This document shows positions 3,961 to 24,748 of a stretch of 64,000 bases of DNA, piece after piece (the stretch's first letter is position 1; each line of letters opens with the position of its first letter). The DNA is from an archaeon (GTDB lineage: Archaea; Undinarchaeota; Undinarchaeia; Undinarchaeales; JBDRKL01). Position numbers and translations under genes: made by a program. Location: contig JBDRKL010000006.1 in assembly GCA_043814055.1 (NCBI GenBank), positions 26,550 through 90,549 on the forward strand, given 5' to 3'. A model generated the notes under the pieces. It was not told the DNA's origin, ran no database searches, and saw only the letters and a program-made list of their open reading frames with translations.

Positions 3961-3963
3961 TAT

Positions 3964-4497: not shown

Positions 4498-4531
4498 AAC
4501 ACAGAATGATAGAAAGAGTGGCTAATAAACC

Positions 4532-5332: not shown

Positions 5333-5395
5333 TCAAATCACCTGAATTAATAAGACCTACAGTACTTGTACTAAGTATATAAATTTAATGGGTTT

Positions 5396-7291: not shown

Positions 7292-7358
7292 AGTAATTCT
7301 TCTGCCTTTTAAGTGTGGAAGCAAGTATTTAAACTTTTCGTCACTTTCCAGTGGTAAA

Positions 7359-10300
7359 TTAGGCAGAGCCGTCCTTTCCTGCCTTTTTCTTAGTGTCAGC
7401 ATTCTTTTTGAGCTCTTCCCTCTCAATTTCCTTGAGTACGTCATCCTCAATTGCTTTCTTCTTTTCCTTCTCCTCTTTCTTTCCCTTCTTCCCATTCCTC
7501 TTTTTATTGAGGTTGTGCCTTGCGCTCATCAGCATTACTATGCCGAAGAGCATGAACAAGCCCATCCAGGTGGTTGACTTTATCTGGTTTAAGAGTAGCA
7601 GTACAGTCGGTCCGCCGGTCTCGTCGTCCCAGAGCTTGGTAACCTTGAACTGAGCCACGCCGTCCTCTATGCTGTTTAGTGTTATCTCAAGGTCGTCCAC
7701 TCCATCGTGATCTATGTCCACGGTTGTGGTTTCAAGGCGCTCAATTGAAATTCTTTCAACCTCGCCTCTTATCCTGAGTATTGCCGAGTAGTGCTTCACG
7801 TCCTCAACGCCCAGAAGTTCCTCTACGCCCTTGAATTCAAAGGTGTACTCGTCGCCCTTCACTGTGTCAATTATAAGCTCGTTGTTCTCGCTGAAGTCCA
7901 GTCCAAACTCGCTGGAGTCCCTTGTGACAACTTCCTCAACTGGCTCTTCCTCTTCCTGGCAGGACATTGCGTCCATGCAATCTGAGTCTGCACAGTCAAC
8001 GTCGCCATCGTAATCATTATCCTCGCCATCACTGCAGATTTCAACAAGCGCGGCTGGTGATGCTGACATTGGTGGCCCGCGGCCGCCATATCCCCCGCCC
8101 CCGCCGTAGTATGGCTCAGGTGGCGCAGGTGGTGCTGGAGGCGCAGTAACAGTGTAAATTCCGGTTGCAGTTGTTGCAGTGCCATAATTATCAAGCACGT
8201 AAACCGTGTATGAAATATCTCCAATAGTGTCGTTCTCTGTGTTGTGCACTGCTTCATATGCGGTTCCGCCGGCAGGCATTATCGCGGTGTAGTTCACGCT
8301 GCCAATTTCAACATAAATGTTGCTGACTCCAATGTCGTCGGTTGCAGTCACGGCAAACATTATGAGATTGCCCTGAGTTACAGGGTTTGGCTCAACAGTT
8401 ACCCCGTTTATCACAGGCGGGGTGTTGTCCGCAACAACTGTGTAGCTGCCTGCAAGTGGCGCTGCATTATTGCCTGCATTGTCGCTCGCGTATGCGGTGT
8501 AATTGAAAGTTCCAATCGCGCTTGTGTCTGCGCCATTATAACAGTACATATCCTGGGTTCCTGCGTAAAGCGCTGCAGTGTAATTCACGCCTGCAAGCTC
8601 AATGAACACCGCGTTCACCGCAGTGTCATCAGTGACGTTCGCGCAGATTATGAGCTGGTTGTTCTGCCCAATTATATCGTAGTTCTCGTCAACTGAGTTT
8701 ATCACAGGTACTTCAGCCCAGTCAGCGATTACAATTTCAGGCGGTGCAGTGTAAGTCCTGCCGCCGTATATGATTGTTCCGCTGTATAGTATGCCATTCC
8801 TGATGTCCGCGTTGAGCACAATCATATCGCTGAGCTCGGTGTTCTCTATGCGTGAGTTGGTCACGTCGCAGTTCGTCAGGTTTGAGCTGATTATGGTTGA
8901 GATTGTTGCGTTTGTGTTTATCAGGTTTGACGGATCAACGTATGAGTCAACAATGTACGCGTCCGTGAGTGTTGAGTCAAGCACTGTTGAGCGGAGCAGT
9001 ATGCTGTTCACTATTGTTGACCTCTCGGCTCTTGAAGCGTTTGCTGAGCTGATGTCAAAGCTGGTGTCTGTGAGGTTTGAGCACTCGTAGACGTAGCTGT
9101 TTATCAGCTGGCCGTCGGTCACGTTCGCGTCCGTGTAGTAGTAAGAGTCAACAAAGGTCCTGAGCACCCAGTTGCATCCTGCCGGAGCCAGGGTTACAGT
9201 GACGTTCTGGGATGAAAGGTTCCACTGGGTCTCGTCATCCGTGACGTTGAGTGTTATTGTGTAAGTGCCCTCGCTGGTGTAGGTGTGCGTTGGGTTGCTG
9301 CCAGTTGCAACAGTGCCATCGCCGAAGTCCCAGGCGTAGCCTGTTATTGCTCCACCGTCCGGGTCGTAGCTCGTTGAGCCGTCAAATACTATCACGTTCG
9401 TAGTGTCCGGATTAAGCGGCTGGTAAGTGAACTGCGCTATTGGAGGCACTGCGCTCGGGGAGAGCACTACAAAAGTGGTGCTCTCAGTGTTGTTAACATT
9501 TCCGTAAGTGTCAAATGCAGAGTATGTGATGCTGTACACGCCATATTCATTCGGTATGGTGTAGCTTGTGCTGTATGTATCGCCGCCAGCGTTTGTGAGT
9601 GTCAGCATTTCTGAACTGCCGTTAGGGATTGTTACAAGCGCATACACGCTGTTTATCCCTGATGCATCGGTCGCGTCTGCTGAAATTGTTATCACATCTG
9701 ACACGTTGTACATACTGCCTGCAGCAGGAATCAGATTGAACACAAGCGGCGCAGTGGTGTCTATATCAGTTACTGTGTAGTCGCTGGAGTAAATTGCCAC
9801 GTTTCCACTGGTGTCATTTGCATATATAATATAATCAACAGTTCCAACTGAGCTTGTGTTTGCGCTTGTTGATTCATAGGTGTTGCCTGACACGTGTGTC
9901 ATTGTGTAGTTCTGTCCATTAGCCTCAAGCGTTACAGTGTCTACTGCAACATTGTCCGTAACGTCCGCGCTTATCAACTGTGGAGCGTTCTGCACGATTG
10001 GGTCAAACCTCTCAATGACATTGCTGATTACTGGATTTTCTGTGTCTGCTTGCGCGATAACTGTGTAGTCGCCGTTTATTGGTGCTGCATCATTTGCTGA
10101 ACCATCATTTGCATAGATGGTGTAGTCAAAAGTTCCAAGCGTGCTGGTGTTTGCTGCTGTGTACTCGTATGAGTTCCCGCCAGTGCTGGTCATTGTGTGG
10201 TTCTGTCCTGCGAGTTCAATCTGCACGGTGTTCACTGCTACATTGTCTGCCACGTCTGCTGTAATTGTGATTATTGCATCTTGTTCTACCGGGTCAGGGA

Positions 10301-12341
10301 TGCTCTGCACATTGCTGATTACTGGATTTTCTGTGTCTGCTTGCGCGATAACTGTGTAGTCGCTGCCGTCTATCCCGGCGTTGTCTGAAGTGTCGTATGC
10401 TGTAATCAGGTAGTTAAATGTGCCGAGCTGAGTTGTGTCTGCTGCGGTGTATTCGTATGTGTCGCCGCTGACGTGGGTCATGACCCCACTTCCGCTGGTC
10501 ATTTCAATTTCGACCCTGTCAATGCCGACATTGTCAGTAACTTCTGCTGTAATTGTAATAACGCGGTTCTGCACAACTGGGTCTGGGCTGTCGGTTACAT
10601 CCACGAATACTGGGGCTTCAGTGTCCTCAACTGCAATAACAGTGTAGTCTCCATCAACCGGTGTTGCATCGTTGCCTGAAGCATCGCTTGCGTATATGGT
10701 GTAATCAAAGTTTCCAAGTACGCTAGTGTCAGCGTCATTGTAAACATAAATGGTTGTGTCAGCAACCTGCGCCATCGCATACTGAATTCCATCCAGTTCA
10801 ACCAAAACTGCGTCAACCGCAACATTGTCTGTGACATTTGCGATTATCTGGTTGCCCTCGTTCTGCTCAACCGGGTCTGGCGCGTCAAGGACATTTGCAA
10901 TTACCGGAGCCTCAGTATCTTCCTCGCCTGGTGCAATAACTGTGTAATCTCCATTAACCGGAGTTGCGTCGTTGCCTGATTCATCCTCTGCATAAACAGT
11001 ATAGTCAAATGTTCCAAGCTCGCTGGTGTCAGCGCTGGTGTAAACAAATTCATTTCCAGTGCTATGCGCCATTGGATACTTGGTCTTGTCAAACTTAATC
11101 ATAACATTGTCAAGCTGTTCATTATCAGTAACAGCAGCTGTAATAGTGATAACCTCGTTCTGCTCAACCGGATCGGGCTCATCGCTTACAGTTGAAATAA
11201 CAGGGGCCTCGGTGTCATCATCTTCTGTTGAACCGCCCTCAGCAAGCGTCAGAACAAAAAGTGTAACCATATTGTCATTCCTGTTGCCGTTCTCGTCAAC
11301 CGTCTTTACTCCAAAAGTGTAATCAGTGCTTGGCTGAAGGTTTGTAATATTATATTCCGCGCCGTCAACTGAAGTGAAGTAAATGCCGTTTTTGTATAGG
11401 CGCGCGTGGTCAAAGTCATTGTCATTTGGATTATTCCAGGACAAAACTGCCCAGGTTGCGCCAACTGATTCTGCTACAAGGTTCGTGACCTTTGCAGGCG
11501 GGGTAGTGTCCTCTTCTGTTTCGTTGGTGTCATTATCTCCACCATTTCCATCATCATCTCCACCATTGCCATCGTTCTGTGGGTTGACCTCAATCGTAAC
11601 TGTGCCGCCGTTTGTCTTGCCGCCGCAGGCTGCCTGCTGCCAGTAATATATAATGCCACCAATGTATGATTCATACGCAACCGTGCAGAGCTTCACGTCG
11701 TGCTCGCCTGGTGCAAGATTCCTAAAAGTATAAGTGTTTGAATCTGTGGTGCTGTGGCTGTTCGGTCCTTCCATTCCATATACTTCGCTGGAATCATCAA
11801 GCCTCCAAAAAGTGTAGAAACCATCGGTGTAGTCGCCCTGAAGATTACTCTTTACCCTGCCGCTTGCGTAAACCGTGGTTCCGTAAGGTTCACTCTCAAC
11901 TGGGCTTAGAATCGTGAACTCGTAGCCTGGGAGTATTGTATTTGGTGCATTTTCTCCTGCACTTGTTTCAGTAAATCCACACTCCTCAAGAGTGTAGCCA
12001 CGTAGCACGCACTGCCGTGCTTCCTCGTAATTATCTATAACATCCTTAATATTATCCGCTGCAGCCTCATTTGCGTCGTGCCTGTCGTCCTGGGATTTTT
12101 CTATAGCGTTGCGCATATCATCTTGTGATCTCTGAATAGCATCTGCCCTTGCGTCCTGCGCATCCTCTATGGCAGAGCCCTGCCTGGTTATGTCAGTTGA
12201 CCTGAATGGGCTAAAGTCTGTCGCGCTTGAACCAGCGCGGGAAATAGTTCTCACAGGCGCTGCATAAGCAGCCTGCGACATTAGCAATAGAGCTATAAAA
12301 ACTATGCTTATAATTTTTTTATTTGTCATTTCAACCATCAC
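7359..12341 (-). CDS. 1660-aa cell-surface protein (FN3, tandem ~95-aa Ig-like repeats, PKD, C-terminal TM)
   Basis: Repeats DTEAPVIS..PDPVEQN..ITA.VTDN; FN3 (LQPSTDYTFGVKTVD); PKD (YAWDFGDG); many N-X-S/T sequons. Confidence 0.8.
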   Translation of the reverse strand: MMVEMTNKKIISIVFIALLLMSQAAYAAPVRTISRAGSSATDFSPFRSTDITRQGSAIEDAQDARADAIQRSQDDMRNAIEKSQDDRHDANEAAADNIKDVIDNYEEARQCVLRGYTLEECGFTETSAGENAPNTILPGYEFTILSPVESEPYGTTVYASGRVKSNLQGDYTDGFYTFWRLDDSSEVYGMEGPNSHSTTDSNTYTFRNLAPGEHDVKLCTVAYESYIGGIIYYWQQAACGGKTNGGTVTIEVNPQNDGNGGDDDGNGGDNDTNETEEDTTPPAKVTNLVAESVGATWAVLSWNNPNDNDFDHARLYKNGIYFTSVDGAEYNITNLQPSTDYTFGVKTVDENGNRNDNMVTLFVLTLAEGGSTEDDDTEAPVISTVSDEPDPVEQNEVITITAAVTDNEQLDNVMIKFDKTKYPMAHSTGNEFVYTSADTSELGTFDYTVYAEDESGNDATPVNGDYTVIAPGEEDTEAPVIANVLDAPDPVEQNEGNQIIANVTDNVAVDAVLVELDGIQYAMAQVADTTIYVYNDADTSVLGNFDYTIYASDASGNDATPVDGDYTVIAVEDTEAPVFVDVTDSPDPVVQNRVITITAEVTDNVGIDRVEIEMTSGSGVMTHVSGDTYEYTAADTTQLGTFNYLITAYDTSDNAGIDGSDYTVIAQADTENPVISNVQSIPDPVEQDAIITITADVADNVAVNTVQIELAGQNHTMTSTGGNSYEYTAANTSTLGTFDYTIYANDGSANDAAPINGDYTVIAQADTENPVISNVIERFDPIVQNAPQLISADVTDNVAVDTVTLEANGQNYTMTHVSGNTYESTSANTSSVGTVDYIIYANDTSGNVAIYSSDYTVTDIDTTAPLVFNLIPAAGSMYNVSDVITISADATDASGINSVYALVTIPNGSSEMLTLTNAGGDTYSTSYTIPNEYGVYSITYSAFDTYGNVNNTESTTFVVLSPSAVPPIAQFTYQPLNPDTTNVIVFDGSTSYDPDGGAITGYAWDFGDGTVATGSNPTHTYTSEGTYTITLNVTDDETQWNLSSQNVTVTLAPAGCNWVLRTFVDSYYYTDANVTDGQLINSYVYECSNLTDTSFDISSANASRAERSTIVNSILLRSTVLDSTLTDAYIVDSYVDPSNLINTNATISTIISSNLTNCDVTNSRIENTELSDMIVLNADIRNGILYSGTIIYGGRTYTAPPEIVIADWAEVPVINSVDENYDIIGQNNQLIICANVTDDTAVNAVFIELAGVNYTAALYAGTQDMYCYNGADTSAIGTFNYTAYASDNAGNNAAPLAGSYTVVADNTPPVINGVTVEPNPVTQGNLIMFAVTATDDIGVSNIYVEIGSVNYTAIMPAGGTAYEAVHNTENDTIGDISYTVYVLDNYGTATTATGIYTVTAPPAPPAPPEPYYGGGGGYGGRGPPMSASPAALVEICSDGEDNDYDGDVDCADSDCMDAMSCQEEEEPVEEVVTRDSSEFGLDFSENNELIIDTVKGDEYTFEFKGVEELLGVEDVKHYSAILRIRGEVERISIERLETTTVDIDHDGVDDLEITLNSIEDGVAQFKVTKLWDDETGGPTVLLLLNQIKSTTWMGLFMLFGIVMLMSARHNLNKKRNGKKGKKEEKEKKKAIEDDVLKEIEREELKKNADTKKKAGKDGSA

Positions 12342-13949: not shown

Positions 13950-15215
13950 TTATGCTCCCAATGAAACATTATATTCACTCTCTGAAATCGCCTCTCCCAC
14001 TTCACTGAATTCTTTTCTTGTTTTTTCAAGCTTGATTTCATCCACTCCAAATCTCTTCTCGTCTTCGCTTATTTTTCCCCTCAGCTCAGAAATCTCTGCC
14101 TCTAATTCCTTCTTGCGCTTGGAATACTCTGAATTCACCAAGTCATTTTTCTTGGCTTTTCTCTGCCCATCACGTTCAGCATGCTGTTTTATAAGAGCAT
14201 CCAAATTATCCTTCAACCCGTGTTCTATGGAGATCAGCGCTTTTTCCTTCTCCTTGTCATCCAGCTGTATAGTTCCTTTTTCCAAAGCATCTTTTAATTT
14301 TTTAAGAAGTTCGTTCAGGTGCGGCCCCTCGTGAATTATTTCTCTTGAGTTTGCGATGCAGAGTTCAATATAGTCCATCAATTCTTTTTTCTCAAGCCCC
14401 TCCACAGACCTCTTGTATTTTCTAAGCGGTCTGGTTAATTGACCAATAATGTGGAGTACATTGCGCCCGATGTCCTCTTGTTTGGTCTGAATCTCCATTA
14501 GCCCTTTCTCAAGTCCCTCATATGTTACCTTCTCTTTAGAGGTATAGAGCGCTTGAAGCGCGTCCTCTTTCTTTTTCACGGCGACTTTAAGTTTTTCAAT
14601 GTTCTTCTGGCGCAATGGTAGATTTGTATCCAGTGGGACCATGGCATTTCTCAACTCACCATATCTAGAAAGCATCTCCAGCACTTCCTCATTCTTTTTA
14701 ATCCCCTCGTTAGCCCCTTTTATCTTGTCAAGAAATTCATTTGATGCCAGGGACAGGTTTTGGAGGTTATTGCGCAACTCTTCAACTTCCTTGCTGAACC
14801 CAAACTTGACAAAGCGGAGGTATGTCTTCTCCAGTTTGTGTATGGTGTTTATGCAGCTGATAAATCTCCTGCTGGCCTCCACGCAGTCCTCGTAGTTATT
14901 CAGACTAAGGTCAAATATGAGGTCTATGTTGTGCGTAATTCCCTCCACATAGGACTTTTTGCTGTTCTTGAGTGTCTGGGCGAGCGGCTTGTGCATCGCT
15001 GGGTCAGGTTGAACAGCATTAACTTTGTCCGCCTCCTCCTTCAACCTTTCGCCCGTCTCTTTTATTCTATCATAAATTGACCCAAGCTCTGCTAACAGTT
15101 CTTCTCTAACCTTTTTATTTTCCTCATTCAAAAATTCAGTCAGTTCGGCTATGGTGAAAGTTTTGCTCTCCTGCCTCACTGTTTTTTCCTTGCCAAATCT
15201 TGAAAAGAATCTCAT
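13950..15215 (-). CDS. Coiled-coil hypothetical protein
   Basis: 421-aa E/K/L-rich helical ORF, no catalytic motif. Confidence 0.65.
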   Translation of the reverse strand: MRFFSRFGKEKTVRQESKTFTIAELTEFLNEENKKVREELLAELGSIYDRIKETGERLKEEADKVNAVQPDPAMHKPLAQTLKNSKKSYVEGITHNIDLIFDLSLNNYEDCVEASRRFISCINTIHKLEKTYLRFVKFGFSKEVEELRNNLQNLSLASNEFLDKIKGANEGIKKNEEVLEMLSRYGELRNAMVPLDTNLPLRQKNIEKLKVAVKKKEDALQALYTSKEKVTYEGLEKGLMEIQTKQEDIGRNVLHIIGQLTRPLRKYKRSVEGLEKKELMDYIELCIANSREIIHEGPHLNELLKKLKDALEKGTIQLDDKEKEKALISIEHGLKDNLDALIKQHAERDGQRKAKKNDLVNSEYSKRKKELEAEISELRGKISEDEKRFGVDEIKLEKTRKEFSEVGEAISESEYNVSLGA

Positions 15216-15429
15216 TTTACTTATGTGTGCACTGTGGTTGAATTACAATGCGGTGGACGAGCCCCTTAATCGAAAAGGGGCGCATTAGTTACAAGAGTGG
15301 TTTAGGTTGAGGCTTTATTTATAAGTTGAGGCAGTAGTTTAGCGGGGCTGTGGTGTCGCTCTATGTTCCAGAGTACAGGGGTTACAAGGCACAGCAAAAC
15401 TTAAATACTGCGTAGTACATTTGCAATAC

Positions 15430-15666
15430 ATGGAAAATGAAACTATTCAAGTACGCATGAATGGAACTCTTGTGAAGAAGATAGATGTTTGCGTAAAGCA
15501 CGGTTTGTTTGACAACCGTTCAGAAGTTGTCAGGGATGCTGTGAGGCAAATGTTTTCTCCAGAGCTAAAGCCGGAAGTTCTTGCTGAATGCATGAAAATC
15601 TCTGAGGGAATGAGAAAAGGCAAGAAGATGTCTTTGGAAGATTTAGAGAAAGAGTTATTGGAATGA
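15430..15666 (+). CDS. Ribbon-helix-helix antitoxin
   Basis: TIQVRM...NRSEVVRDAVR; overlaps the relE start (ATGA). Confidence 0.8.
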   Translation: MENETIQVRMNGTLVKKIDVCVKHGLFDNRSEVVRDAVRQMFSPELKPEVLAECMKISEGMRKGKKMSLEDLEKELLE

Positions 15667-15935
15667 GCTATTCTATTTCTTTGTCTGACAAGGCGACCAA
15701 GCAATTAAAAAAGCTGAACAAGGCTGTTGTCCGAAGAATCATAGACAAACTAAAAACACTATCCAGCGAGCCTTATTCAAAAACTCTACCGCTACAGGAC
15801 TCTGAGTTCAGGCGGCTCAGAATCGGTGACTGGAGGATAATTCTTGACATAGCCGACGATTTGAAAGAAGTTTTTGTGGTCCTTGTCGGCAAGCGGGAGA
15901 ATATTTATGAAGAGCTGGAGCAGAGTGGTGGTTAA
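15663..15935 (+). CDS. RelE/ParE family toxin
   Basis: KATKQLKKL...RRLRIGDWRII...VGKRENIY. Confidence 0.88.
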   Translation: MSYSISLSDKATKQLKKLNKAVVRRIIDKLKTLSSEPYSKTLPLQDSEFRRLRIGDWRIILDIADDLKEVFVVLVGKRENIYEELEQSGG

Positions 15936-16021: not shown

Positions 16022-16082
16022 AAACATTTATTAACATTGAGTGAGATACTTCACCTCTAACATATGGGGCTATGGTGTAACC
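16022..16082 (+). repeat. tRNA-Trp promoter + 5' fragment, copy 1 (left junction)
   Basis: aaacatttattaa...GGGGCTATGGTGTAACC, 17/17 match to tRNA positions 1-17. Confidence 0.85.
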
Positions 16083-16104
16083 CTTCTTTGAAAAATTGCA
16101 GATA

Positions 16105-17160
16105 TTAAAGAGAACCTGCAGCACCATCGGCTTTAGGTGCCATTGCTTTTTTGTAATTCTCCTGAAGCTCATATGATAACGTCTGAACCTTATCTTTGGT
16201 AATCGCAGAAATCAGCAGGACTTTCTCTTTCTTTGTCTTGAAAAAAGACAGGATTGCGTCCTGCTGCTCTTGTGACAAAAGGTCAGTTTTGTTGATGACA
16301 ATCATGCTTGAAACCTTTAAAAGGTCATTGCTAAACTGCGCCATTTCCTTCTCTAATACCCCTTTTTGCGCCCATAGGTGCTGGGTCAGTTTTTTCCCAG
16401 CCAGCTCAAGCACGTCCTCCTCCGGGTACAACACATAAACAATCAGCTGGCACCTTTGAAGGTGCTGGAGGAATTGAATCCCAAGACCCTTGCCGAGCGA
16501 CGCGTCCTCAATCAGGCCAGGGATGTCCGCTATGACCAGATTGCCCTTCTTGTCATCGGTTTCCATGACCCCCAGGTTTGGTGATAATGTAGTGAAAGGG
16601 TAATTCGCAATCTTTGGCTTAGCCTTGGTCAGGACAGAAAGCAGGGTGCTTTTTCCAGCGTTCGGCAGGCCTGCCAGCCCGATTTGGGCCAAAACCTTGA
16701 GTTTCAGCTGCACGCTGATGGGCTTTGTCTTTTCCCCCTCAGTTGACTCTTTCGGATAGACATTAGTAGATGATCTGAAACACCAATTGCCCGTGCCTCC
16801 TTTGCCGCCGCGCGCGAGACAGAACCTCATGCCAGGCTTGTCCAAATCCACGATAAGCCTGCCTGTGTCTGCGTTGTAAATCATTGTCCCGACAGGAATC
16901 TGGAGCGTTGTGTCCTCTGTCCTCTTGGCGTAGGCCCTCCCATTTTTGCCATTCGCACCATTTTTCGCAACTATGAGATGTCTGCCAAATAAGTCACTCA
17001 GGGTGTTCAGGTTGGTTGTGGTTTCAACATAGATGGAGCCGCCTTGACCGCCGTTCCCGCCGTCAGGCCCGCATTTAGGGCGGTTCTTTTCCCTGCGGAA
17101 GCCGACCTGGCCATCTCCGCCATTACCTGCTTTTACAACAAAACTTGCCTCATCTATCAT
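16105..17160 (-). CDS. obgE: Bacterial-type Obg/CgtA GTPase
   Basis: Gly-rich Obg fold (GNGGDG..FRREK..GPDGGNGGQGGS), G1 GLPNAGKST, G2 YPFTT, G3 DIPG, G4 NKTD, G5 SA; no C-terminal domain. Confidence 0.9.
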   Translation of the reverse strand: MIDEASFVVKAGNGGDGQVGFRREKNRPKCGPDGGNGGQGGSIYVETTTNLNTLSDLFGRHLIVAKNGANGKNGRAYAKRTEDTTLQIPVGTMIYNADTGRLIVDLDKPGMRFCLARGGKGGTGNWCFRSSTNVYPKESTEGEKTKPISVQLKLKVLAQIGLAGLPNAGKSTLLSVLTKAKPKIANYPFTTLSPNLGVMETDDKKGNLVIADIPGLIEDASLGKGLGIQFLQHLQRCQLIVYVLYPEEDVLELAGKKLTQHLWAQKGVLEKEMAQFSNDLLKVSSMIVINKTDLLSQEQQDAILSFFKTKKEKVLLISAITKDKVQTLSYELQENYKKAMAPKADGAAGSL

Positions 17161-17234
17161 ATTATGATTCCACTTAAACGATGCGGGGTGTAGTATTTAA
17201 TCTTATCTGGCAGTGTCCGGCCTTAATTGAGGCT

Positions 17235-18335
17235 CTAGTAATCAACTTCTCTCGTCCTGTATTTTCTTATTTCTCTTCCTTGTTTTGCAGTGTCCTTCCA
17301 TTTGGTTTTCTCTGCCCGTCTGACCATATTCTTTTGTTTAATTGCGAGAACTTCAACTTCCTGTTTCAGTTTCAAATAATGTGCATATCGGCGGGGGTCA
17401 AGCTTTCCGGTATCAAGCGCTTCCTTGACTGCACAGTCCGGTGCATTTTCATGGTTGCAGTCTGTGAATTTACACTGTTGGATAATCTCCTCAACATCTC
17501 TAAACATCTCACTAATACCCTCGCCTTTGGACCATAGTTGCATTTCCCTCACTCCAGGATTGTCTATAATCATCCCGCCTTTTGGCATCATAAACAGCTC
17601 ACGATAGGCTGTAATGTGCCTTCCGTGACCGTCGGTTTCCCTAACTTCTCCCACTTCCTGTCGGTCTACTCCGAGAAGCTGATTAAGAATCGTTGACTTG
17701 CCCACGCCTGATGACCCGAGAATAGCTATGGTTTTCCCCTCTTCTAAATATTGGTCAAGCGCATCCAATCCTTGATTTAGTTTCGCGCTCAAGATATGCA
17801 CTGGAGCATTTTGAGCTATCTTTTTCACTTCCTCACCTCTTTCCTCTGGGTTATCACAAAGGTCAGATTTATTCAATATTACAACTGGTTTTGACTTGCT
17901 CTCTGATACCAAAGTAAGATATCTTTCAATTCTTTGGATGTTGAACTCATTATCAAGGCCTGCAACAATCCAAACCATATCCACATTTGCGACTAGGATT
18001 TGTTCTTCTGTAGTTACCCCAGCAACTTTTCTGGAGAATTTGTTCCGCCTTGGAAGAACTGTTTTAATGGTTCCTTCCTCGTTCGCAACCCCTTTCTTAA
18101 TCGCTACCCAGTCGCCAACAACCGGATAAGCCCCTTTCTCAGTGGCATCAAATCTGAATTTCCCTGAAACTTTAACTTCGGTTTCCCCTGTTTCAGTGAG
18201 TGCAATGTAACCCTTTCGCTGGACTTTAATTATGCGCCCTGGCACAAGTCCGTTCAGTTGGTATGGACTAAAGCTCTCTTCAAAGAATGAATCCCAGCCA
18301 ATTTTTTTAAGGTCTATTTTAGCGGTGGTCATCAT
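17235..18335 (-). CDS. rsgA: Ribosome small-subunit-dependent GTPase A
   Basis: OB fold (PVVGDWV), permuted NKSD / GSSGVGKST, GRHIT, DNPG, Zn motif CKFTDCNHENAPDC. Confidence 0.92.
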   Translation of the reverse strand: MMTTAKIDLKKIGWDSFFEESFSPYQLNGLVPGRIIKVQRKGYIALTETGETEVKVSGKFRFDATEKGAYPVVGDWVAIKKGVANEEGTIKTVLPRRNKFSRKVAGVTTEEQILVANVDMVWIVAGLDNEFNIQRIERYLTLVSESKSKPVVILNKSDLCDNPEERGEEVKKIAQNAPVHILSAKLNQGLDALDQYLEEGKTIAILGSSGVGKSTILNQLLGVDRQEVGEVRETDGHGRHITAYRELFMMPKGGMIIDNPGVREMQLWSKGEGISEMFRDVEEIIQQCKFTDCNHENAPDCAVKEALDTGKLDPRRYAHYLKLKQEVEVLAIKQKNMVRRAEKTKWKDTAKQGREIRKYRTREVDY

Positions 18336-18463
18336 GTTTCACCATTCTTTTTTTCATAACAATAATTAATGAGTTCTACTACTTCAATTCTTCTCCTCTG
18401 CCCCTCCGATGTATTTGGGTTACGAGGTAGGACTCATTTTTTGAATATTGGCTTAGGGCTACA

Positions 18464-19513
18464 CTATACCCAGCCCTTTCTCCTGAAATACATAAACATT
18501 GAGATGCCTATCATAGATACCAATACCCACAATAGCGGGTAAGACCACTTCCAATGAAGCTCCGGCATGAAATCAAAGTTCATCCCGTACATCCCAGCCA
18601 CAAATGTCAGCGGTATAAATATGGATGCGAATATGGTAAGCACTTTCATCACTTCATTCATCTTGTTGCTTATTGTTGAGAGGTAAAAATCAAGCAGTCC
18701 AGAAACCATGTCCCTGTATGACTCAATAGTGTCTATGACTTGTATGGTGTGCTCGTAGAGATCCCTGAGATAGGCCTCAGTTGATTTCTTCACAAGCTTT
18801 GATTCTGCGCGCTGAAGATTGCTTATCACTTCCCTGAGCGGCCAGACAGACTTGCGGAGCTCTATGAGCTCGCGCTTCATGCTGTATACGTTGTTTAAAA
18901 CCTCGCTTGTTGGGTTGTCAAGTATGTTCTGCTCCAGCGATTCTATTTTGTCCCCCACCTTCTCAAGCAGAATAAAGTAATTGTCCACGATGGCGTCCAT
19001 CAGGGCGTAGGCGAGGTAATCGCTGCCCATCTTTCTTATGCGTCCTTTTCCGCTTCGTATCCTCTGCCTAACAGGGTCAAACACATCGCCCTCGTGCTCC
19101 TGGAATGAAATAACAAAATTCTTGCCAAGCACGATGCTCACTTGCTCATTGCTAATCTCGTGTTTTTTCTCGTCAAATTGGAGCATCTTCAGAGCCATGA
19201 AAATGTAGGAGTCAAAGTCCTCAAACTTGGGCCTCTGGTGCGTGTTTGCGATATCCTCAAGAACTAGCGGATGCACATCAAAATGTTTGCCAAGTTTTTC
19301 AAGAATTTCCACGTTGTGAACGCCTGTAACATTCATCCACGTTACAGTTGGCTTTTTCTTGAACGGGAAGCAGTCCTCTACTTTACTGGCGGGTTTCTCC
19401 TCAAGATTTGTTTCTTTGTAATCAATTATGTCTATCTTGACTTCAGCTTCCTTCTCTTTCCCAACATACACAACTGACCCTGGGGACATCCCAGGCTTTT
19501 TAGTTTTTGCCAT
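18464..19513 (-). CDS. corA: Mg/Co transporter CorA
   Basis: HPLVLEDI, MNEVMKVLT, YGMNF, MPEL; start MAKTKKPG at 19513 downstream of a TATA. Confidence 0.93.
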   Translation of the reverse strand: MAKTKKPGMSPGSVVYVGKEKEAEVKIDIIDYKETNLEEKPASKVEDCFPFKKKPTVTWMNVTGVHNVEILEKLGKHFDVHPLVLEDIANTHQRPKFEDFDSYIFMALKMLQFDEKKHEISNEQVSIVLGKNFVISFQEHEGDVFDPVRQRIRSGKGRIRKMGSDYLAYALMDAIVDNYFILLEKVGDKIESLEQNILDNPTSEVLNNVYSMKRELIELRKSVWPLREVISNLQRAESKLVKKSTEAYLRDLYEHTIQVIDTIESYRDMVSGLLDFYLSTISNKMNEVMKVLTIFASIFIPLTFVAGMYGMNFDFMPELHWKWSYPLLWVLVSMIGISMFMYFRRKGWV

Positions 19514-19604
19514 CTCCAAGCTTGGTACTCTGAGTTGGTTTATAAAAGTATGTTTGCCTGCTTTACAAAAGTTTATTACGCCGGCAAACTCCGGCGGCAC
19601 GTTT

Positions 19605-19638
19605 GGCTGCATTCGCTCACTTTGTTCGCGAAACAGCC
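19605..19638. repeat. REP-like palindrome GGCTGCATTCG-loop-CGAAACAGCC
   Basis: Same arms as the tRNA-intron hairpin at 24544-24573. Confidence 0.6.
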
Positions 19639-19654
19639 ATATTTAGATTTTTGA

Positions 19655-19800
19655 AAACCTTTATTAATCTTGGATTAGATACTTCATTCTTACAATTGGT
19701 TACTGAATGTCCCACAGCCCGCCGTCAAATAAATAACGGGGCTATGGTGCAACCTACCTTCTCTGCGGTGGTACACAACGCGAATTTTGCAAAGATATTT
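19655..19800 (+). repeat. Cassette junction, copy 2 (promoter, CAATTGGTTACTG segment, tRNA 5' fragment, ACGCGAATTTTGC segment)
   Basis: Direct similarity to the junctions at 20570-20795 and 23625-23847. Confidence 0.8.
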
Positions 19801-19840
19801 AATCAGATATTCTCCAACGTTTATTTTCTCACTAGAACAG

Positions 19841-20464
19841 TTATACACAATCGCAATACTTGCTAGCGCCTAGGTCTGTATGAAAAACTGTGCCAGTTGG
19901 GCATTCACATGTAGCAACTATGTATATGCCTACGACTGTAGGGTTATCAATACTCGCTGGTTTGCTGGGATCATTCAACTCGCCGCATCTTGCATTTGTC
20001 ACGCAGGCATCTGGTTGCACATGATTGTTATTATTGTCAGCAGCAGAATTCACAGGCAGATAGTATGTTCTGCACGCAGACCTCCCGCTAACATCCTTTA
20101 CACAGACTTGGAAATTGCCGCCTGTTCCTGTTGGTGTGCCCTTCAATACACCATCAATGCCAAGAATAAGTCCCATTGGTGGAAATCCAACCCCTGAGCC
20201 GAGATAGAAAGTATAGGGGCCATTATTTCCTTGAGGGTCCAGAGAAGAAATCATATCATGAGAAAAATCAAGGCTGTATGGAACGCCTATAGTTGCTGGA
20301 TAATCATTAAGTTTCCAAACTAAATCACCACCAATGTGAGGAAGCTTGATGAATCCTGCCTGCGATCCTATCACTATACCAAATATAACTACAATAAGTA
20401 TCCCAGGAATCCATGGGCTTTTTATAAGGCTTGGTTTTGATTTTGCTGGTTGTGTTTTTGCCAT
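19841..20464 (-). CDS. Membrane-anchored putative Ig (He_PIG-like) domain protein with Cys-rich tail
   Basis: N-terminal TM; FPPMGLILGIDGVLKGTPT..GNFQVCVKD. Confidence 0.6.
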   Translation of the reverse strand: MAKTQPAKSKPSLIKSPWIPGILIVVIFGIVIGSQAGFIKLPHIGGDLVWKLNDYPATIGVPYSLDFSHDMISSLDPQGNNGPYTFYLGSGVGFPPMGLILGIDGVLKGTPTGTGGNFQVCVKDVSGRSACRTYYLPVNSAADNNNNHVQPDACVTNARCGELNDPSKPASIDNPTVVGIYIVATCECPTGTVFHTDLGASKYCDCV

Positions 20465-20569
20465 CTATAAGCTTGGTAATTTCTGTTGGTTTATAAAACT
20501 ATGCTCAAAGTAAAATTAGGCTTAAGGATAGTCGTATGACTTCTTCACAGACGTTTCTTTCTGCACTCC

Positions 20570-20795
20570 AAACATTTATTAATCTCGGATTAGATTACTC
20601 TCTGTTAACATTGGGGCTATGGTAAAACACAGACCTTCCAATTGGTTACTGTGTTAACCACAGCCACTGTTAAATAATTGGGGCTATGGTGTAACCTTCT
20701 AAGCCAGGGTAGTGGGGTTTAAGGGTAGGGCTCACCACGCGATTTTGGCAAAATTTGAACTTTAACTTCGGTCAGAATGGTGGCTAGGAACTTAA
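20570..20795 (+). repeat. Cassette junction, copy 3, with two tRNA 5' fragments
   Basis: 20570-20623 is 50/54 identical to 24437-24490; second fragment GGGGCTATGGTGTAACCT at 20680-20697. Confidence 0.85.
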
Positions 20796-20797
20796 TA

Positions 20798-21832
20798 CTA
20801 CATTAATCCAAATATGAACCCTGCTGTTGTTGAAAATACAATCACAAGTCCGATATACACAAGCGTTTGTTTATTGCCAAGTATTTTTCTTATTACGAGC
20901 ATGTTCGGCAGGCTGAGGCTTGGACCGGCCAGTAACAAGGCTAGTGCAGGGCCTTTGCCCATCCCCAGTTTCATCAATTCTCCGATGATTGGAACTTCAG
21001 TTAGCGTAGCGAAGTACATGAGAGCTCCGAAGATTGAAGCGACAAAATTAGATGTTAGACTGTTACCTCCAAGGTATGCTTGGACTATCTCTTGGGGGAG
21101 CAGAACCTGTATCATGCCAGCTATGAACACGCCAATTAATAGATAGGGCACTATCAGTTTTGTAATGCTCCAAGTTTCCTTTAACCAGTTGAGGTTATCC
21201 TGCTTAGTGAATTTTAATTTTAGTAAAATCAATAGGAAAATAAGCAGCATACTAAAGCCCATTAATTTCAAAGTAAAACCGATTTGAAGCCCGTTAACAA
21301 TCAATATTCCTACAAGGAGTGCAAAAAATGACAAAACTGTAGTTTTTGATTTCTCGTGCCCCACAGGGGCAGAGAACACATCCCCTTTATTTTTTGTTTT
21401 TCTTTGGAACAAAAAGTGCATTATCAGTCCGATTACAATCGACAGTGAGATGGCAGCAACAGCCCTCGCAACCCCTAACTCAAAACCAAGTACATTTGCA
21501 GTGTAGATTATAGCGAGCAGGTTAATCGCAGGACCTGAGAAAAGAAACGTTATCGCAGGGCCTAGGCCTGCCCCCCTTTCTTTTATGCCCGCGAATAAGG
21601 GAAGGATTGTACAGGAGCAGACCGCAAGTATTGCCCCGGAAACTGCAGCAACAGAGTAGGAAACGTGCTTTTTGGCATTAGGTCCAAGATACTTGAGAAC
21701 AGATTCTTTTTTTAGGAAAACTGCAATTGCCCCTGCTATGAAAAATGCAGGGATGAGGCAGGTTATGACGTGGGCTGACAGGTATTCAGTTAGAGCAGTA
21801 GTTCCGGCAAAAACCAGCTCAGTTAGAATCAC
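20798..21832 (-). CDS. ArsP-like (DUF318) permease
   Basis: LAVCSCTILPLF, FLFSGPAIN, MYFATLTEVPI, LLLAGPSLSLP. Confidence 0.85.
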   Translation of the reverse strand: MILTELVFAGTTALTEYLSAHVITCLIPAFFIAGAIAVFLKKESVLKYLGPNAKKHVSYSVAAVSGAILAVCSCTILPLFAGIKERGAGLGPAITFLFSGPAINLLAIIYTANVLGFELGVARAVAAISLSIVIGLIMHFLFQRKTKNKGDVFSAPVGHEKSKTTVLSFFALLVGILIVNGLQIGFTLKLMGFSMLLIFLLILLKLKFTKQDNLNWLKETWSITKLIVPYLLIGVFIAGMIQVLLPQEIVQAYLGGNSLTSNFVASIFGALMYFATLTEVPIIGELMKLGMGKGPALALLLAGPSLSLPNMLVIRKILGNKQTLVYIGLVIVFSTTAGFIFGLM

Positions 21833-22056
21833 TTAATCCACCCCTTTATTTCATCCACTGTAGGAATTCTGCCCTGTGCCTTTACTTCACCATCAATAAC
21901 AATCGCAGGAGTCATCGTGACTCTTTCTATTATTTTTGTGATGTCTGTGACCTTTTCTATCTCAACATTAACATCCAGTTCGCTTGCCGCCTGCTTGGCG
22001 TTTTCTTCGAGCTGTTTGCATTTGGTGCAGCCCGACCCAAGTATTTCTATTTTCAT
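21829..22056 (-). CDS. Small redox-active disulfide protein (thioredoxin family)
   Basis: MKIEILGSGCTKC...MTPAIVIDG. Confidence 0.88.
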   Translation of the reverse strand: MKIEILGSGCTKCKQLEENAKQAASELDVNVEIEKVTDITKIIERVTMTPAIVIDGEVKAQGRIPTVDEIKGWIK

Positions 22057-22070
22057 TTTTTATACTCCAT

Positions 22071-22781
22071 TTATATGTTTATTAATAGGGTATAGTAAAC
22101 CCCTACGAAAATGAACACGACTGAGACTATTCTCCGCATCCACTTGTCAAAAACCTGAACTTTGTCCATTATAACAGCGAGTTTCGAGACGCTGTACGTA
22201 AGCACGAACGAAACTATAATAACAGGCAGGCCAGTTCCAAGGGCAAATAATATAGGGATTAGCACACCATCACCTGTCGCCAGCGCGAGCGGTATGAGCA
22301 TCCCAAAGAACAGCACTGCGCTGAACGGACAGAACGCCATAGCAAAAATTACCCCGAGCAGGAAGCACCCCAGTAGCCCCTTGCTGAACAATTTCTCCTT
22401 CAGCAGATTGATACTCTCACTTCCTCTGAGGTTAGGGAGTTTAATCAAACCAGTCATTAGCACGCCTATAAGAATTAAGAAAGGTCCAAGTGCAGCTTCT
22501 CCATAGCGCTGGAGAAACAATGATACAGACTGGGAACTTAGTCCTGCCCATACTATAAGTGACGCGATAGAGACATACGTAAGTGCCCTTCCAGTTGTAT
22601 AAACCACTCCGGCGAGAAGAGTCCATCTTTTCTCACCAAGACGCTTGGATATGGCTGCTATCGCGGTGATATTCGTCGCCATTGGACAGGGACTTAGCGC
22701 AGTCATTAGTCCTATGAAAAAAGCCGCTATTATGGCGATTTCGCTTGTACCCATTGCTTCCATGAAAGTCATTAATGTCAT
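22071..22781 (-). CDS. ArsG-like / DsbD-CcdA family membrane protein
   Basis: LSPCPMATN and AFCPFS motifs; about 6 TM; ars operon context. Confidence 0.75.
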   Translation of the reverse strand: MTLMTFMEAMGTSEIAIIAAFFIGLMTALSPCPMATNITAIAAISKRLGEKRWTLLAGVVYTTGRALTYVSIASLIVWAGLSSQSVSLFLQRYGEAALGPFLILIGVLMTGLIKLPNLRGSESINLLKEKLFSKGLLGCFLLGVIFAMAFCPFSAVLFFGMLIPLALATGDGVLIPILFALGTGLPVIIVSFVLTYSVSKLAVIMDKVQVFDKWMRRIVSVVFIFVGVYYTLLINI

Positions 22782-23278
22782 TCTAATTCACCTGCCAATT
22801 TTTGTTCAATTACACTCTTGAGATAGTTCATGTAATCTGCCTTGTCGTTTATCTTATACCAGACGTTGGTGTTCTGCTCGGCATGAAAACCGTTCTCGTC
22901 ATAGACACCAATCCATAATGAAGAGCCTGTTGCGCCGTACTTTTCTGCAAGCGCCGCATTCTCCGAAAGCTGGACGTTTACATGTCCGAATACTACTTTA
23001 CCTGATTTCACCTCGTCGGCAAAGTACGTGTTGACAGTCTCTTCGGCGTATGCCCCAACAGTAATGCAGGAATAACATTGACGCGTCCCGTGGAAATGAT
23101 ATACTTCGATTTTTTCTACATTAGATGGGGGCAATTGGATTTTGGCTGTTTCTCCAGCAGTATCATTAACGCCAACATCAGAATCCGTTTTACCGTCGCC
23201 CACGCAACCAGAGCTAATCACTATTACTACAAGTAAAACAAGAAGCACACCAAGCGGCTTAGCACTCATTTTTGTCAC
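22778..23278 (-). CDS. ArsF-like thioredoxin-fold lipoprotein
   Basis: Lipobox ISSGC; YHFHGTRQCYSC. Confidence 0.7.
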   Translation of the reverse strand: MTKMSAKPLGVLLVLLVVIVISSGCVGDGKTDSDVGVNDTAGETAKIQLPPSNVEKIEVYHFHGTRQCYSCITVGAYAEETVNTYFADEVKSGKVVFGHVNVQLSENAALAEKYGATGSSLWIGVYDENGFHAEQNTNVWYKINDKADYMNYLKSVIEQKLAGELE

Positions 23279-23567
23279 TTCTCCTGCAAAGGCCTTTTAC
23301 AGTTTTGCGCTTCGTGTAGCCAAGTGCCTTGAGTACATTGCAAACCCTAAAGTCGTTTATCTTGTAAAGTATTTTCTTGCCGTCTCTCCGTGATTCGAGG
23401 ATGCCACAGTTCTCTAATTTTCCCAAGTGGATGGAAACTGTTGATTGTTTCCTCCTTGTGTGTGGGATTATTTCGCAGACACACTTTTCGCCGTCTAGGA
23501 GAAACTCGACGATTTTCAGCCTTGTTTCATCTGCAAGGGCCTTTAGGATTTTGAGAGATTCCTTCAT
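23259..23567 (-). CDS. arsR: ArsR/SmtB family metalloregulator
   Basis: LKALADETRLKI..GEKCVCEI..QSTVSIHL; inverted repeat ATATTGA-N6-TCAATAT at 23573-23592 overlapping its promoter. Confidence 0.88.
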   Translation of the reverse strand: MKESLKILKALADETRLKIVEFLLDGEKCVCEIIPHTRRKQSTVSIHLGKLENCGILESRRDGKKILYKINDFRVCNVLKALGYTKRKTVKGLCRRSDKNEC

Positions 23568-23624
23568 AAAACATATTGACAAGTATCAATATATAAAGTT
23601 TTTCTAGCCCACTTCCCCTCCTCC

Positions 23625-23847
23625 AAACCTTTATTAATCTCTAACTAGATTACATGTATCTGCACTGTGTAACCCGGGAGCAAAGGTTTAAATACAATGA
23701 ATGCGCTTTTCTCGAAACCGGTAAGCTAAGGTGCAAAAACATAAATTGGGGCTATGGTGTAAACCACGTCTAATGGTACTGTACACCACGCGAATTTTGC
23801 CAAGAATTGGACTGTAGCTCGGTTCACTTACTGGCTTAGGGACTTAA
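23625..23847 (+). repeat. Cassette junction, copy 4, with tRNA D-arm relic and 5' fragment
   Basis: Promoter 23625-23640; GTGTAACCCGGGAGCA 23667-23682 (15/16 match to the tRNA D-arm); GGGGCTATGGTGTAA 23748-23762; CACCACGCGAATTTTGC downstream. Confidence 0.8.
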
Positions 23848-23895
23848 GATTTTAGGTGAAAAACATTATAAAGAACCTTGTTTTAATTTTATCAT

Positions 23896-24390
23896 ATGAA
23901 AATACTTGTTTTCTTACACGGAACATCGATTATGCATAAAAATGCCGAAGGACATAATCCAGAAGAGATAGCCAAACAAGTAATAGAGGGCGAGGAATCG
24001 GTTACAGATTATAGCTCATACATCCCGGTTGGAAACGCTGTTGAAAAACTTAAAACTTGGGAAACTCAAGGGGCAAAAATTTTGTATTTTAGTTCTCATA
24101 AAAAGTTCGAAGATGTTGAACAAGATAAAGCTGTTCTAAAAAGGCAGGGGTTCCCCAAAGGTTTGGTATATTATCGTAAAAATGATGAAGAATATCATAC
24201 TGTTGTGGAGCGAATAAAACCAGATATACTAGTAGAGGATGATGCCAAGTCCATTGGTGGGGATATGATTTCACCAACATTAAATCCAAAACTTGGAATA
24301 AAAATAATTGTTGTTAAAGAATTTGCTGGGATCGACAACCTTCCTGACGAGATTTCTGTTTTATCAAAAAATCATTCCCAAGCGACTTAG
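23896..24390 (+). CDS. Hypothetical protein, HAD-like fold
   Basis: Degenerate motif I (LVFLHGT), ILYFSS, ILVEDD motif IV-like. Confidence 0.5.
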   Translation: MKILVFLHGTSIMHKNAEGHNPEEIAKQVIEGEESVTDYSSYIPVGNAVEKLKTWETQGAKILYFSSHKKFEDVEQDKAVLKRQGFPKGLVYYRKNDEEYHTVVERIKPDILVEDDAKSIGGDMISPTLNPKLGIKIIVVKEFAGIDNLPDEISVLSKNHSQAT

Positions 24391-24479
24391 GGGCAGTCCT
24401 ACAGCTGACGCGCGGACTTTTCTTTCTCTCGTTTACAAACCTTTATTAATCTCGAATTAGATTACTCTCTGCTAACATC

Positions 24480-24748
24480 GGGGCTATGGTGTAACCTGGG
24501 AGCATAAGTGGCTCCAGTCAGCCGAGAAATCGGCTGGCGCTTTGTGCTGCATTCGGCTTCGCCGAAACAGCACGGCTCGCACGAACCCGCAACAGCGGGT
24601 TGTGCAACACGCTTCGCGTGTTTGCACGCTCGCGCGTGCTCGCTTGGGCGCCAAGATTGGAGCTTTGACCCTTCGGGGGATGATAAAGTACAAAGCTCAC
24701 AGTGGTAGAAACCACTAGGCCAGGGTTCAAATCCCTGTGGCCCCACCA
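24480..24748 (+). tRNA. tRNA-Trp(CCA) with 193-nt intron at 37/38 (24518-24710) and encoded CCA end
   Basis: Acceptor GGGGCTA/TGGCCCC, D-stem GTGT/GCAT, anticodon stem AGTGG/CCACT with CT-CCA-G, T-arm CAGGG-TTCAAAT-CCCTG, ACCA; relaxed BHB. Confidence 0.92.
24656..24686 (+). ncRNA. Intron-encoded box C/D guide element for Cm34 of tRNA-Trp
   Basis: TTGGAGCT (24657-24664) pairs with positions 30-37 and is followed by D'-like TTGA; the 5th nt upstream pairs with C34; then CCC-TTCG-GGG and C'-like GATGATA. Confidence 0.65.

Follow-up and report, generated by a model that had tools for sequence, protein, structure and literature searches.

How does a tRNA gene come to be preceded by several copies of its own promoter and 5′ end, with unrelated genes between them? 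The question is raised by the tRNA-Trp locus in a 64,000-nucleotide (nt) stretch of contig JBDRKL010000006.1 (assembly GCA_043814055.1) of an archaeon of the Undinarchaeota. DPANN archaea are host-dependent and have very small genomes, and their gene gain is poorly understood. An initial annotation of this stretch (the window, to which coordinates refer unless a contig or locus is named) described an integron-like array assembled by repeated insertion of segments carrying a promoter and a tRNA 5′ end. The locus has a regular repeat anatomy, it lies in DNA that is extra relative to related genomes, its cargo is patchily distributed in the phylum, and the same tail recurs in a second case, in another genome. 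Judging from sequence alone, we favour an accretion island formed by serial insertion of related, non-autonomous segments just after nt 17 of tRNA-Trp, an explanation to which we give slightly under an even chance of being right.

The source assembly, G000, is a metagenome-assembled genome (0.98 Mb in 14 contigs, 82% complete, 47% GC) in which ARAGORN, with introns allowed, finds 40 tRNA genes, 18 of them intron-bearing. It was compared, on the basis of assembled contigs, with 16 other genomes of the phylum, 12 of which belong to the same order and none to the family of G000. Three of them, G002, G006 and G010, are congeners from a different family of that order; the leucyl-tRNA synthetase (LeuRS) of G006 is ~65% identical to that of G000.

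Repeat units at the tRNA-Trp gene

The intact tRNA-Trp(CCA) gene lies at 24480-24748, last in the array as initially described, and carries a 193-nt intron (~24516-24708) at the canonical anticodon-loop site, because of which it is overlooked by ARAGORN with default settings. The first 17 nt of the gene (GGGGCTATGGTGTAACC), searched with at most three mismatches, matched six positions in the window, all on the + strand: 16066 (no mismatch), 19738 (1), 20613 (3), 20680 (0), 23748 (1) and the live gene at 24480 (0). Only 0.03 matches are expected from shuffled sequences, and six were reached in none of 100 shuffles. Throughout the 0.98 Mb of G000, all six matches are confined to this locus, no copy being more than 8.4 kb from the live gene, with successive spacings of 3672, 875, 67, 3068 and 732 nt. 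The four full fragment copies (16066, 19738, 20680 and 23748) stop at the same base, nt 17 of the tRNA. The copy at 20613 retains the first 12 nt only and is the left duplicate of a short hairpin insertion, which amends the initial count of five partial copies in direct orientation without otherwise changing it. The reported D-arm relic is also present: 23667-23686 corresponds to tRNA positions 11-30, with 17 of 20 bases identical.

The promoter is repeated along with the fragment. A TATA/BRE-like (BRE, transcription factor B recognition element) 16-mer, AAACCTTTATTAATCT, lies 43 nt ahead of the live gene and, with at most three mismatches allowed, recurs on the + strand at 16022, 19655, 20570 and 23625 in addition to the live copy at 24437, plus one unrelated site on the − strand; the four extra promoters of the initial annotation are thus all found in direct orientation. 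From right to left, the identity of promoter and leader to the live copy falls from 30/34 (88%) in unit D and 41/46 (89%) in unit C to 37/44 (84%) in unit B and 32/43 (74%) in unit A. This decay is the one predicted if older cassettes are pushed leftward and, together with the lost tail of unit A, would fit growth of the array at its tRNA-proximal end.

Each unit lies on the + strand. Unit A (16022-16082) consists of a promoter copy, a leader and tRNA-Trp nt 1-17 at 16066-16082 (17/17 bases). Unit B (19655-19800) has a promoter copy, a partial hairpin cassette (19689-19719), a fragment (19738-19754, 16/17) and a tail with a conserved block at 19770-19799. Unit C (20570-20795) comprises a promoter, the truncated fragment (20613-20629), a ~50-nt hairpin cassette, a full fragment (20680-20696, 17/17) and a tail (20697-20795), whereas unit D (23625-23850) comprises a promoter, a relic reaching into the D arm (23660-23686), a 61-nt insert, a fragment (23748-23764, 16/17) and a tail (23765-23850). 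Unit E (24437-24748) is the live promoter (24437-24452), the leader and the tRNA gene. The sequence CAATTGGTTACTG in units B and C was considered as a degenerate 5′ fragment and rejected, as it belongs to the hairpin cassette. Units C and E also have a 13-nt block in common upstream of the promoter (score of 21 versus 15 ± 2.1, reached in 2 of 300 shuffles); a longer upstream homology of ~115 nt was rejected, its support being limited to this one block. Further left, a TATA-like CTTTATTTATAAG box followed by GGGGCTGTGGTGT (12 of 13 bases of the tRNA start) at 15312-15356 on the + strand may tentatively be regarded as a sixth, older relic, unit Z; we estimate that ~0.08 such 13-mers would occur in the window by chance.

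The tails that follow three of the full fragments are homologous. Local alignment scores were 41 for tails B and D and 44 for C2 (the tail of unit C) and D, against ~15 ± 2.4 for shuffled sequences (reached in 0 of 300 shuffles), and 25 for B and C2 (1 of 300). A pattern derived from three tails matched two sites in G000, one in G006 and none in any other of 401 archaeal genomes, with no control match; these matches speak to specificity and would be circular as evidence of homology, which rests on the shuffle-tested alignments. A reading of the tails as the 3′ end of tRNA-Trp, as in a ‘mini-tRNA’, was rejected since their alignment to the 3′ exon and downstream sequence was not significant, being equalled by 15 to 294 of 300 shuffles. 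The second half of tails D and C2 (23809-23846 and 20745-20795) resembles the start of a tRNA-Phe-like gene (GGACTGTAGCTCGG...) and matches an intergenic site on another contig of G000 (G000:C4:131467-131505, L120; 87% over 38 nt, E 2.7e-5), where no Rfam family or tRNA is called. Scans of metagenome and genome contigs with a degenerate tail motif returned 15 and 16 matches, about the chance level by our estimate, the pattern being too loose; none of these 31 loci has the 17-mer or a promoter box nearby, and the 16 titled genome-contig records are all bacterial. Viral contigs gave seven matches to the 17-mer, none with a tRNA or promoter box, one of which (L089) is an SU10-like phage structural module.

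Units B and C are more closely tied to each other. They share a 50-nt block that contains, on the opposite strand, a TATA box, the ATG and the first four codons (MAKT) of the CorA gene and of the immunoglobulin (Ig)-like gene, respectively (19503-19552 versus 20454-20503, 86% identical DNA; score of 65 versus 16 ± 2.4, 0 of 300 shuffles). The two proteins are otherwise unrelated beyond this shared start. Unit B also carries part of the hairpin insert of unit C. Since the two junction modules have this block and the hairpin insert in common, blocks 1 and 2 have sibling carriers that differ in cargo.

Cargo, extra DNA and a second case in G006

The units separate four blocks that are not paralogous to each other in Pfam content. 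Block 1 (16083-19654, − strand) encodes an Obg GTPase (16105-17160), an RsgA GTPase (17235-18335) and CorA (18464-19513, in an open reading frame (ORF) open to 19612), all recognised by Pfam, with its own promoter and ATG module at 19503-19552; a GC-rich hairpin repeat (19587-19640) lies between CorA and promoter copy B. Block 2 encodes, on the − strand, a 207-residue Ig-like protein, secreted or membrane-bound (19841-20464, the block extending to 20503; Pfam He_PIG E 5e-4, below cut-off), and starts from the module at 20454-20503 that resembles that of CorA. Block 3 (20798-23582, − strand) is an arsenic/thiol-redox operon of an ArsP-type permease, thioredoxin_3, DsbD_2, an ArsF-family protein (NCBIfam, E 7.8e-34) and ArsR, the remaining members being assigned by Pfam. 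Block 4 is a 164-residue ORF on the + strand (23896-24390) of no recognised family. The initial list of four unrelated blocks therefore stands for the Obg-RsgA-CorA, Ig-like and arsR blocks, but not for the ‘HAD-like’ (haloacid dehalogenase-like) label given to the fourth, which has only a sub-threshold LNS2 match (E 0.004) and no PHROG, NCBIfam or PDB match. Nine of the ten cargo genes are on the strand opposite to the repeated promoter. At the left edge, where the initial annotation placed an RHH/RelE pair, a ribbon-helix-helix (RHH) antitoxin (15421-15666; Pfam RHH_8 E 9.6e-6) and a ParE-type toxin (15663-15935; Pfam ParE_toxin E 8.6e-10) lie on the + strand, and this pair (15421-15935) would tentatively form a fifth block if unit Z is real.

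Comparison with relatives indicates that this DNA is additional. The order of tRNA-Trp followed by LeuRS is kept in G002, G006 and G010. In G002, LeuRS and the next genes are syntenic downstream, and the orthologues of window positions 3502-7495 lie directly upstream of tRNA-Trp, so that ~17 kb (about 7.5-24.4 kb) are extra in G000. The repeat-bounded array makes up the right-hand 8.4 kb of this DNA, and GC content is 0.38-0.45 across 13.5-24.5 kb versus 0.46-0.52 in the flanks. The part left of the array, which is not repeat-bounded, includes a 1660-residue ORF (7359-12341) with weak repeat-type matches only. A candidate for a novel recombinase, the 421-residue ORF at 13950-15215, encodes a K/E-rich coiled-coil protein; matches were absent from Pfam, PHROG and NCBIfam and not meaningful in PDB, so that such a function seems unlikely.

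The distribution of the cargo is patchy. Among the 16 other genomes of the phylum, Obg occurs in two (G002 and G010, 70% identity), this type of CorA in three (44-51%), and RsgA and the 164-residue ORF in none, while ArsP has only paralogues of at most 31% identity. The closest RsgA sequences are one at 84% and several at ~70%, followed by Methanofastidiosum and Aenigmarchaeota (~60%) and bacteria (~50%). No relative of the 164-residue ORF or of the Ig-like protein was found on viral contigs, and no tRNA lies within the 4-kb loci examined around the CorA orthologues of G014, G006 and G002. The Obg orthologues of G002 and G010 (L085 9005-10078 and L086 9715-10767) directly follow tRNA-Leu(GAG); the tRNA-Leu(GAG) of G000 has no adjacent Obg, and the Obg of G000 adjoins a tRNA-Trp fragment instead.

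A second case is found in G006. Here, ~3.3 kb that are absent from G002 and G010 separate a conserved DUF4013 flank from tRNA-Trp, and within them lies a displaced tRNA start, composed of a promoter copy, GGGGATATGGCGTAACG at the natural spacing from it, and a tail, in this order. The core of this tail, GGTACACACCACGAATTATGCCAAAAAT, aligns to tails B and D of G000 with scores of 29 and 30, against 15.4 ± 2.5 for shuffles (0 of 500 in each case). The insert contains, in order, a promoter copy with a radical-SAM/B12 gene, the displaced start, an S-layer-like gene on the other strand, and the live promoter with the tRNA; no recombinase is encoded in it. The promoter copy next to the radical-SAM/B12-binding gene (L014, 9483-9565) is a third tRNA-Trp promoter with a partial leader, fused directly before that gene, as if a protein gene had recruited the displaced promoter of the tRNA. 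The displaced promoter of G006 agrees with the live promoter of G010 at 39 of 50 positions, whereas the live promoter of G006 itself agrees with it at 34 of 50, which is what displacement of a resident promoter by an incoming one predicts. In G010, a GC-rich hairpin cassette lies within the tRNA-Trp promoter between two flanking copies of AACCTTTATTA (L015, 12917-13019). Three species of one genus thus present three states of the tRNA-Trp junction.

Possible routes of accretion

No recombinase is encoded in the array, in agreement with the initial annotation: the block ORFs match no mobile-element or recombinase family of Pfam, PHROG or NCBIfam, and give no primase- or helicase-type match. Scanning the whole of G000 with the profiles PF00589 (E ≤ 0.01; control positive in 14 of 14 genomes), PF16795, PF00239, PF01867, PF01797 and PF01548 gave no match, absence not being proven in a genome that is 82% complete; the suggested genome-wide check for a tyrosine recombinase was thus negative. 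PF07282 reached only 16.5 and 14.7 bits (cut-off, 26.3). Tyrosine recombinases (PF00589) are found in 6 of the 16 other genomes, in one of them beside tRNA-Gly, and in none of the three congeners. Not even a Xer-type enzyme is found in G000, three g3 genomes, three g5 genomes and the 98%-complete G001.

Serial insertion would account for these features as follows. At least four successive insertions would have taken place at one exact spot, after nt 17 of tRNA-Trp. Each segment would carry a conserved tail of ~30-85 nt on the left, a variable cargo in the middle, and a promoter, leader and copy of nt 1-17 on the right. Crossover within the 17-nt stretch would attach the incoming tail to the promoter and fragment already in place, which would become a dead ‘decoy’. 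The remainder of the tRNA would receive the incoming promoter and fragment, so that the gene remains intact and expressed; with each insertion, earlier decoys and the cargo between them would shift leftward. We infer a circular or otherwise transferable intermediate and a trans-acting enzyme, which would lie outside the six recombinase families searched and may be the same activity that scatters hairpin cassettes of 50-90 nt with re-copied tRNA ends in this lineage.

Several observations weigh against this interpretation. No candidate enzyme was found in G000, which is 82% complete. Tail A has no significant similarity to the other tails when compared with shuffles. The 12 other genomes of the order each have no or one copy of the 17-mer at up to two mismatches, and the decoy is found in G006 only, and only when three mismatches are allowed; moreover, the closeness of its displaced promoter to that of G010 hinges on 5 positions in 50. 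Some of block 1 may be resident DNA, given that a zinc-finger gene is found within a few kb of Obg in G002 and G010 as well as in G000, a match that covers a 40-residue domain only. Finally, the fragments are better conserved than the promoters (66/68 versus 140/167 bases, binomial p = 6e-4), a difference that is not robust, since p rises to 0.08 under a fairer null that assigns half of the divergence between promoters to the live lineage.

The blocks could instead be decayed autonomous elements whose mobility genes were later deleted, leaving cargo and attachment (att) scars, which we consider unlikely. A precedent exists in the available text of PMC8371274, a review of archaeal tyrosine recombinases: integrases of the pTN3 type have their attB in the 5′ half of a tRNA gene, and the element supplies the promoter from which the rebuilt tRNA is expressed; archaeal elements also integrate in tandem, and the integrase is often lost afterwards. 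The SSV-type ‘suicidal’ elements pTN3 and TKV4 of Thermococcales share with our locus, as described there, the 5′ tRNA attachment site, the promoter supplied by the element and the displaced old promoter and fragment; the fragments in G000 appear to reproduce this arrangement, covering tRNA nt 1-17, and each block has a promoter copy on its right. The tyrosine recombinases of other genomes in the phylum also favour this possibility. The pTN3-like elements of that text differ in that they encode an integrase whose gene is split upon integration, whereas here no integrase is detectable, the cargo is 0.7-3.7 kb of ordinary genes, and the repeated stretch, which stops at nt 17, gives way to a conserved non-coding tail. 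Neither PF00589 nor PF16795 matches any fragment in the six frames of G000, and by our reading of the frames no ORF spans the 17-mer, contrary to what a split into int(N) and int(C) would need; after 30-100 nt, the tails give way to opposite-strand genes, whose 3′ ends come first. In the blocks of 0.7-0.9 kb, one intact gene lies directly between the conserved ends, in G006 too, and clean loss of all mobility genes with both ends kept, six times over, is improbable.

Ordinary homologous recombination of the Campbell type, between repeats of ~60 nt (promoter, leader and fragment) after transfer of DNA between cells, would dispense with a recombinase altogether, and we regard it as still less likely. 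It would agree with the failure to find any recombinase in G000 and with a duplicated stretch that is long for a site-specific core (~60 nt, plus the 13-nt block common to units C and E). In addition, integrase-independent excision between tandem elements is reported in the available text of PMC8371274. However, the repeats are now only 74-89% identical, and the conserved tail, lying outside the duplicated stretch, has no role in such a model. The hairpin inserts in G000 moreover come with duplications of only ~11-25 nt, too short for efficient homologous recombination.

Purely local rearrangement appears improbable. The module would then have been copied by unequal crossing-over or slippage, the genes would have arrived by unrelated events, and a mobile cassette would never have existed. 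The confinement of all copies to within 8.4 kb of the live gene, with none elsewhere in the genome, is what this would produce, and modules B and C are clear paralogues. On the contrary, the blocks between the modules are not paralogous to each other, and the junction of fragment and tail recurs in G006 with other cargo while being absent from its congeners.

That the units are small-RNA genes or decoy promoters, giving a ~55-100-nt transcript with a tRNA-Trp-like start and an end at the TTTT run of the tail, seems very improbable, even though the TATA-like box of each unit is intact and lies at its natural spacing or farther upstream, the tail contains a T run and its motif is conserved across two families. 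The folding energies of the fragment-plus-tail sequences equal those of shuffles (z −0.5 to +1.1, 6 of 6), the fold of the tail alignment has a covariation term of +0.11 and thus no covariation support, no Rfam family matched, and copy number and content vary between close species. Least credible of all is an assembly artefact joining strain variants at the repeat: the genome is metagenome-assembled and in 14 contigs, but the longest exact stretches shared between units are ~17-20 bases and the units are at most 90% identical across 46-60 nt, too short and too diverged to mislead an assembler, and a comparable structure exists in the independent genome G006.

Hairpin cassettes and known tRNA-associated systems

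Re-copied tRNA ends are a wider feature of G000. At about ten other tRNA genes, a 5′ or 3′ end is repeated 76-264 nt from the gene, with hairpin-forming inserts in between; kilobase spacing between copies is seen at tRNA-Trp only. The ~50-nt hairpin insert between 20613 and 20680 matches, at 23 of 24 bases, a hairpin repeat behind tRNA-Cys on another contig. If a hairpin cassette is defined as a short non-coding hairpin with an 11-25-nt copy of a tRNA end, only this insert and its partial copy in unit B are hairpin cassettes within the array, the four large blocks falling outside the definition. Both kinds of insertion have the same target, a tRNA end (including the D-loop region of the 5′ end), and leave a dead end copy beside an intact gene. 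They differ in that the hairpin cassettes of G000 are 50-260 nt long, non-coding and devoid of a promoter copy, while the blocks at tRNA-Trp measure kilobases, contain coding genes and come with a promoter.

The tRNA-Leu(GAG) gene of G002 (L085, G002:C1, 8738-8960) is informative on the origin of such copies. The displaced 3′ end behind its hairpin cassette is identical at 22 of 22 bases to the live 3′ end of the G010 gene (L086, G010:C6), whereas the live end of G002 differs. Because the displaced end matches the live end of G010, the incoming DNA would have brought its own copy of the tRNA end, and the case fits recombination with an element-borne copy better than target duplication by a staggered cut.

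These comparisons open a wider proposal, namely a form of gene capture in this DPANN lineage without an element-encoded integrase. Inserts ranging from 50-nt hairpins to 3.7-kb operons, each with a copy of a tRNA end, would be inserted by a host or helper activity that swaps the resident end, and tRNA-Trp, where the copy consists of the promoter and nt 1-17 with a conserved tail behind it, would be an open-ended, integron-like accretion platform for accessory genes in a ~1-Mb genome. We hold this proposal to be possible but doubtful.

An integron is an ordered array of small, unrelated and individually acquired cassettes at a single site, with IntI, attI/attC sites and a common promoter. Our locus resembles it in being an ordered array of small unrelated blocks at one site; it is nevertheless not an integron on any of the three defining features, having no IntI, no attI or structured attC-like hairpin sites and no common promoter into the cassettes, which have their own promoters and are mostly on the opposite strand. 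The initial interpretation is supported in part, at the level of architecture: the extra DNA, the patchy cargo, the common endpoint, the shared tail, the case of G006, the leftward decay of the promoters and the lack of a recombinase match agree with repeated insertion of segments with a promoter and a tRNA 5′ end. The likeness to integrons does not hold.

The locus has more in common with integrative elements at tRNA genes. Direct repeats of part of the tRNA, a regenerated gene and presence or absence of the insert between relatives are all observed, although no element-encoded integrase was found in G000, G002, G006 or G010. In the tycheposon islands of Prochlorococcus, as far as the available text of 10.1101/2020.12.28.424599 describes them, the island grows beside one tRNA by repeated integration, older material is pushed away, and partial tRNA copies and cargo remain, much as here. 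Those islands are bacterial and have tRNA-specific tyrosine recombinases, none of which was found in the profile scans of G000, and replication modules, for which the block ORFs gave no primase- or helicase-type match, and that text mentions no promoter replacement, whereas in our archaeon the 5′ end and promoter are replaced. Tandem tRNA/tmRNA islands (Islander; PMC4383910) and, in Thermococcaceae, the partial tRNA genes that viruses leave behind on integration (PMC9897764) likewise have insertion ends marked by a regenerated target gene and a displaced fragment; usually, it is the 3′ part that is duplicated, the original promoter is kept and the integrase is next to the tRNA. Targeting of the 5′ end is rare and, from the text of PMC8371274 at hand, already described. 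New here is the combination of a replaced 5′ end and promoter, a conserved non-coding tail, small single-operon blocks without mobility genes and a DPANN host. A search of the available literature, which is no proof of absence, returned no integrase-less arrays of promoter and 5′ fragment and no study of integrated elements in Undinarchaeota-like DPANN archaea.

At the tRNA-Trp locus and in G006, accessory genes (ribosome-assembly GTPases, a Mg2+ channel, an arsenic/thiol operon and surface proteins) appear to arrive small block by small block at one tRNA gene, with a recognisable pair of ends and no integrase. This suggests that small genomes such as these acquire genes through successive insertions at a single site, with no integration enzyme that can be recognised. 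If the ends are substrates of a trans-acting enzyme, they would define a new minimal mobile-cassette system of archaea, a candidate tool for site-specific insertion, and would tie the many short hairpins inserted at tRNA ends in this lineage to genuine gene flow. If the blocks are decayed proviruses that targeted the 5′ end, a rare mode of integration would be extended from Thermococcales to DPANN archaea.

Two further tRNA calls were noted in the window. A 95-nt ‘tRNA-His’ called by ARAGORN at 60102-60196 has the unnatural anticodon ATG and matches no Rfam family at E ≤ 0.1; it is probably a false call or a broken gene. The intron of tRNA-Trp measures 193 nt in G000 versus 56-58 nt in G002, G006 and G010, and its extra GC-rich part (within 24516-24708) matches dispersed hairpin repeats on at least six contigs of G000, including one at ~61155-61201 in the window, with a related hairpin at 19587-19640.

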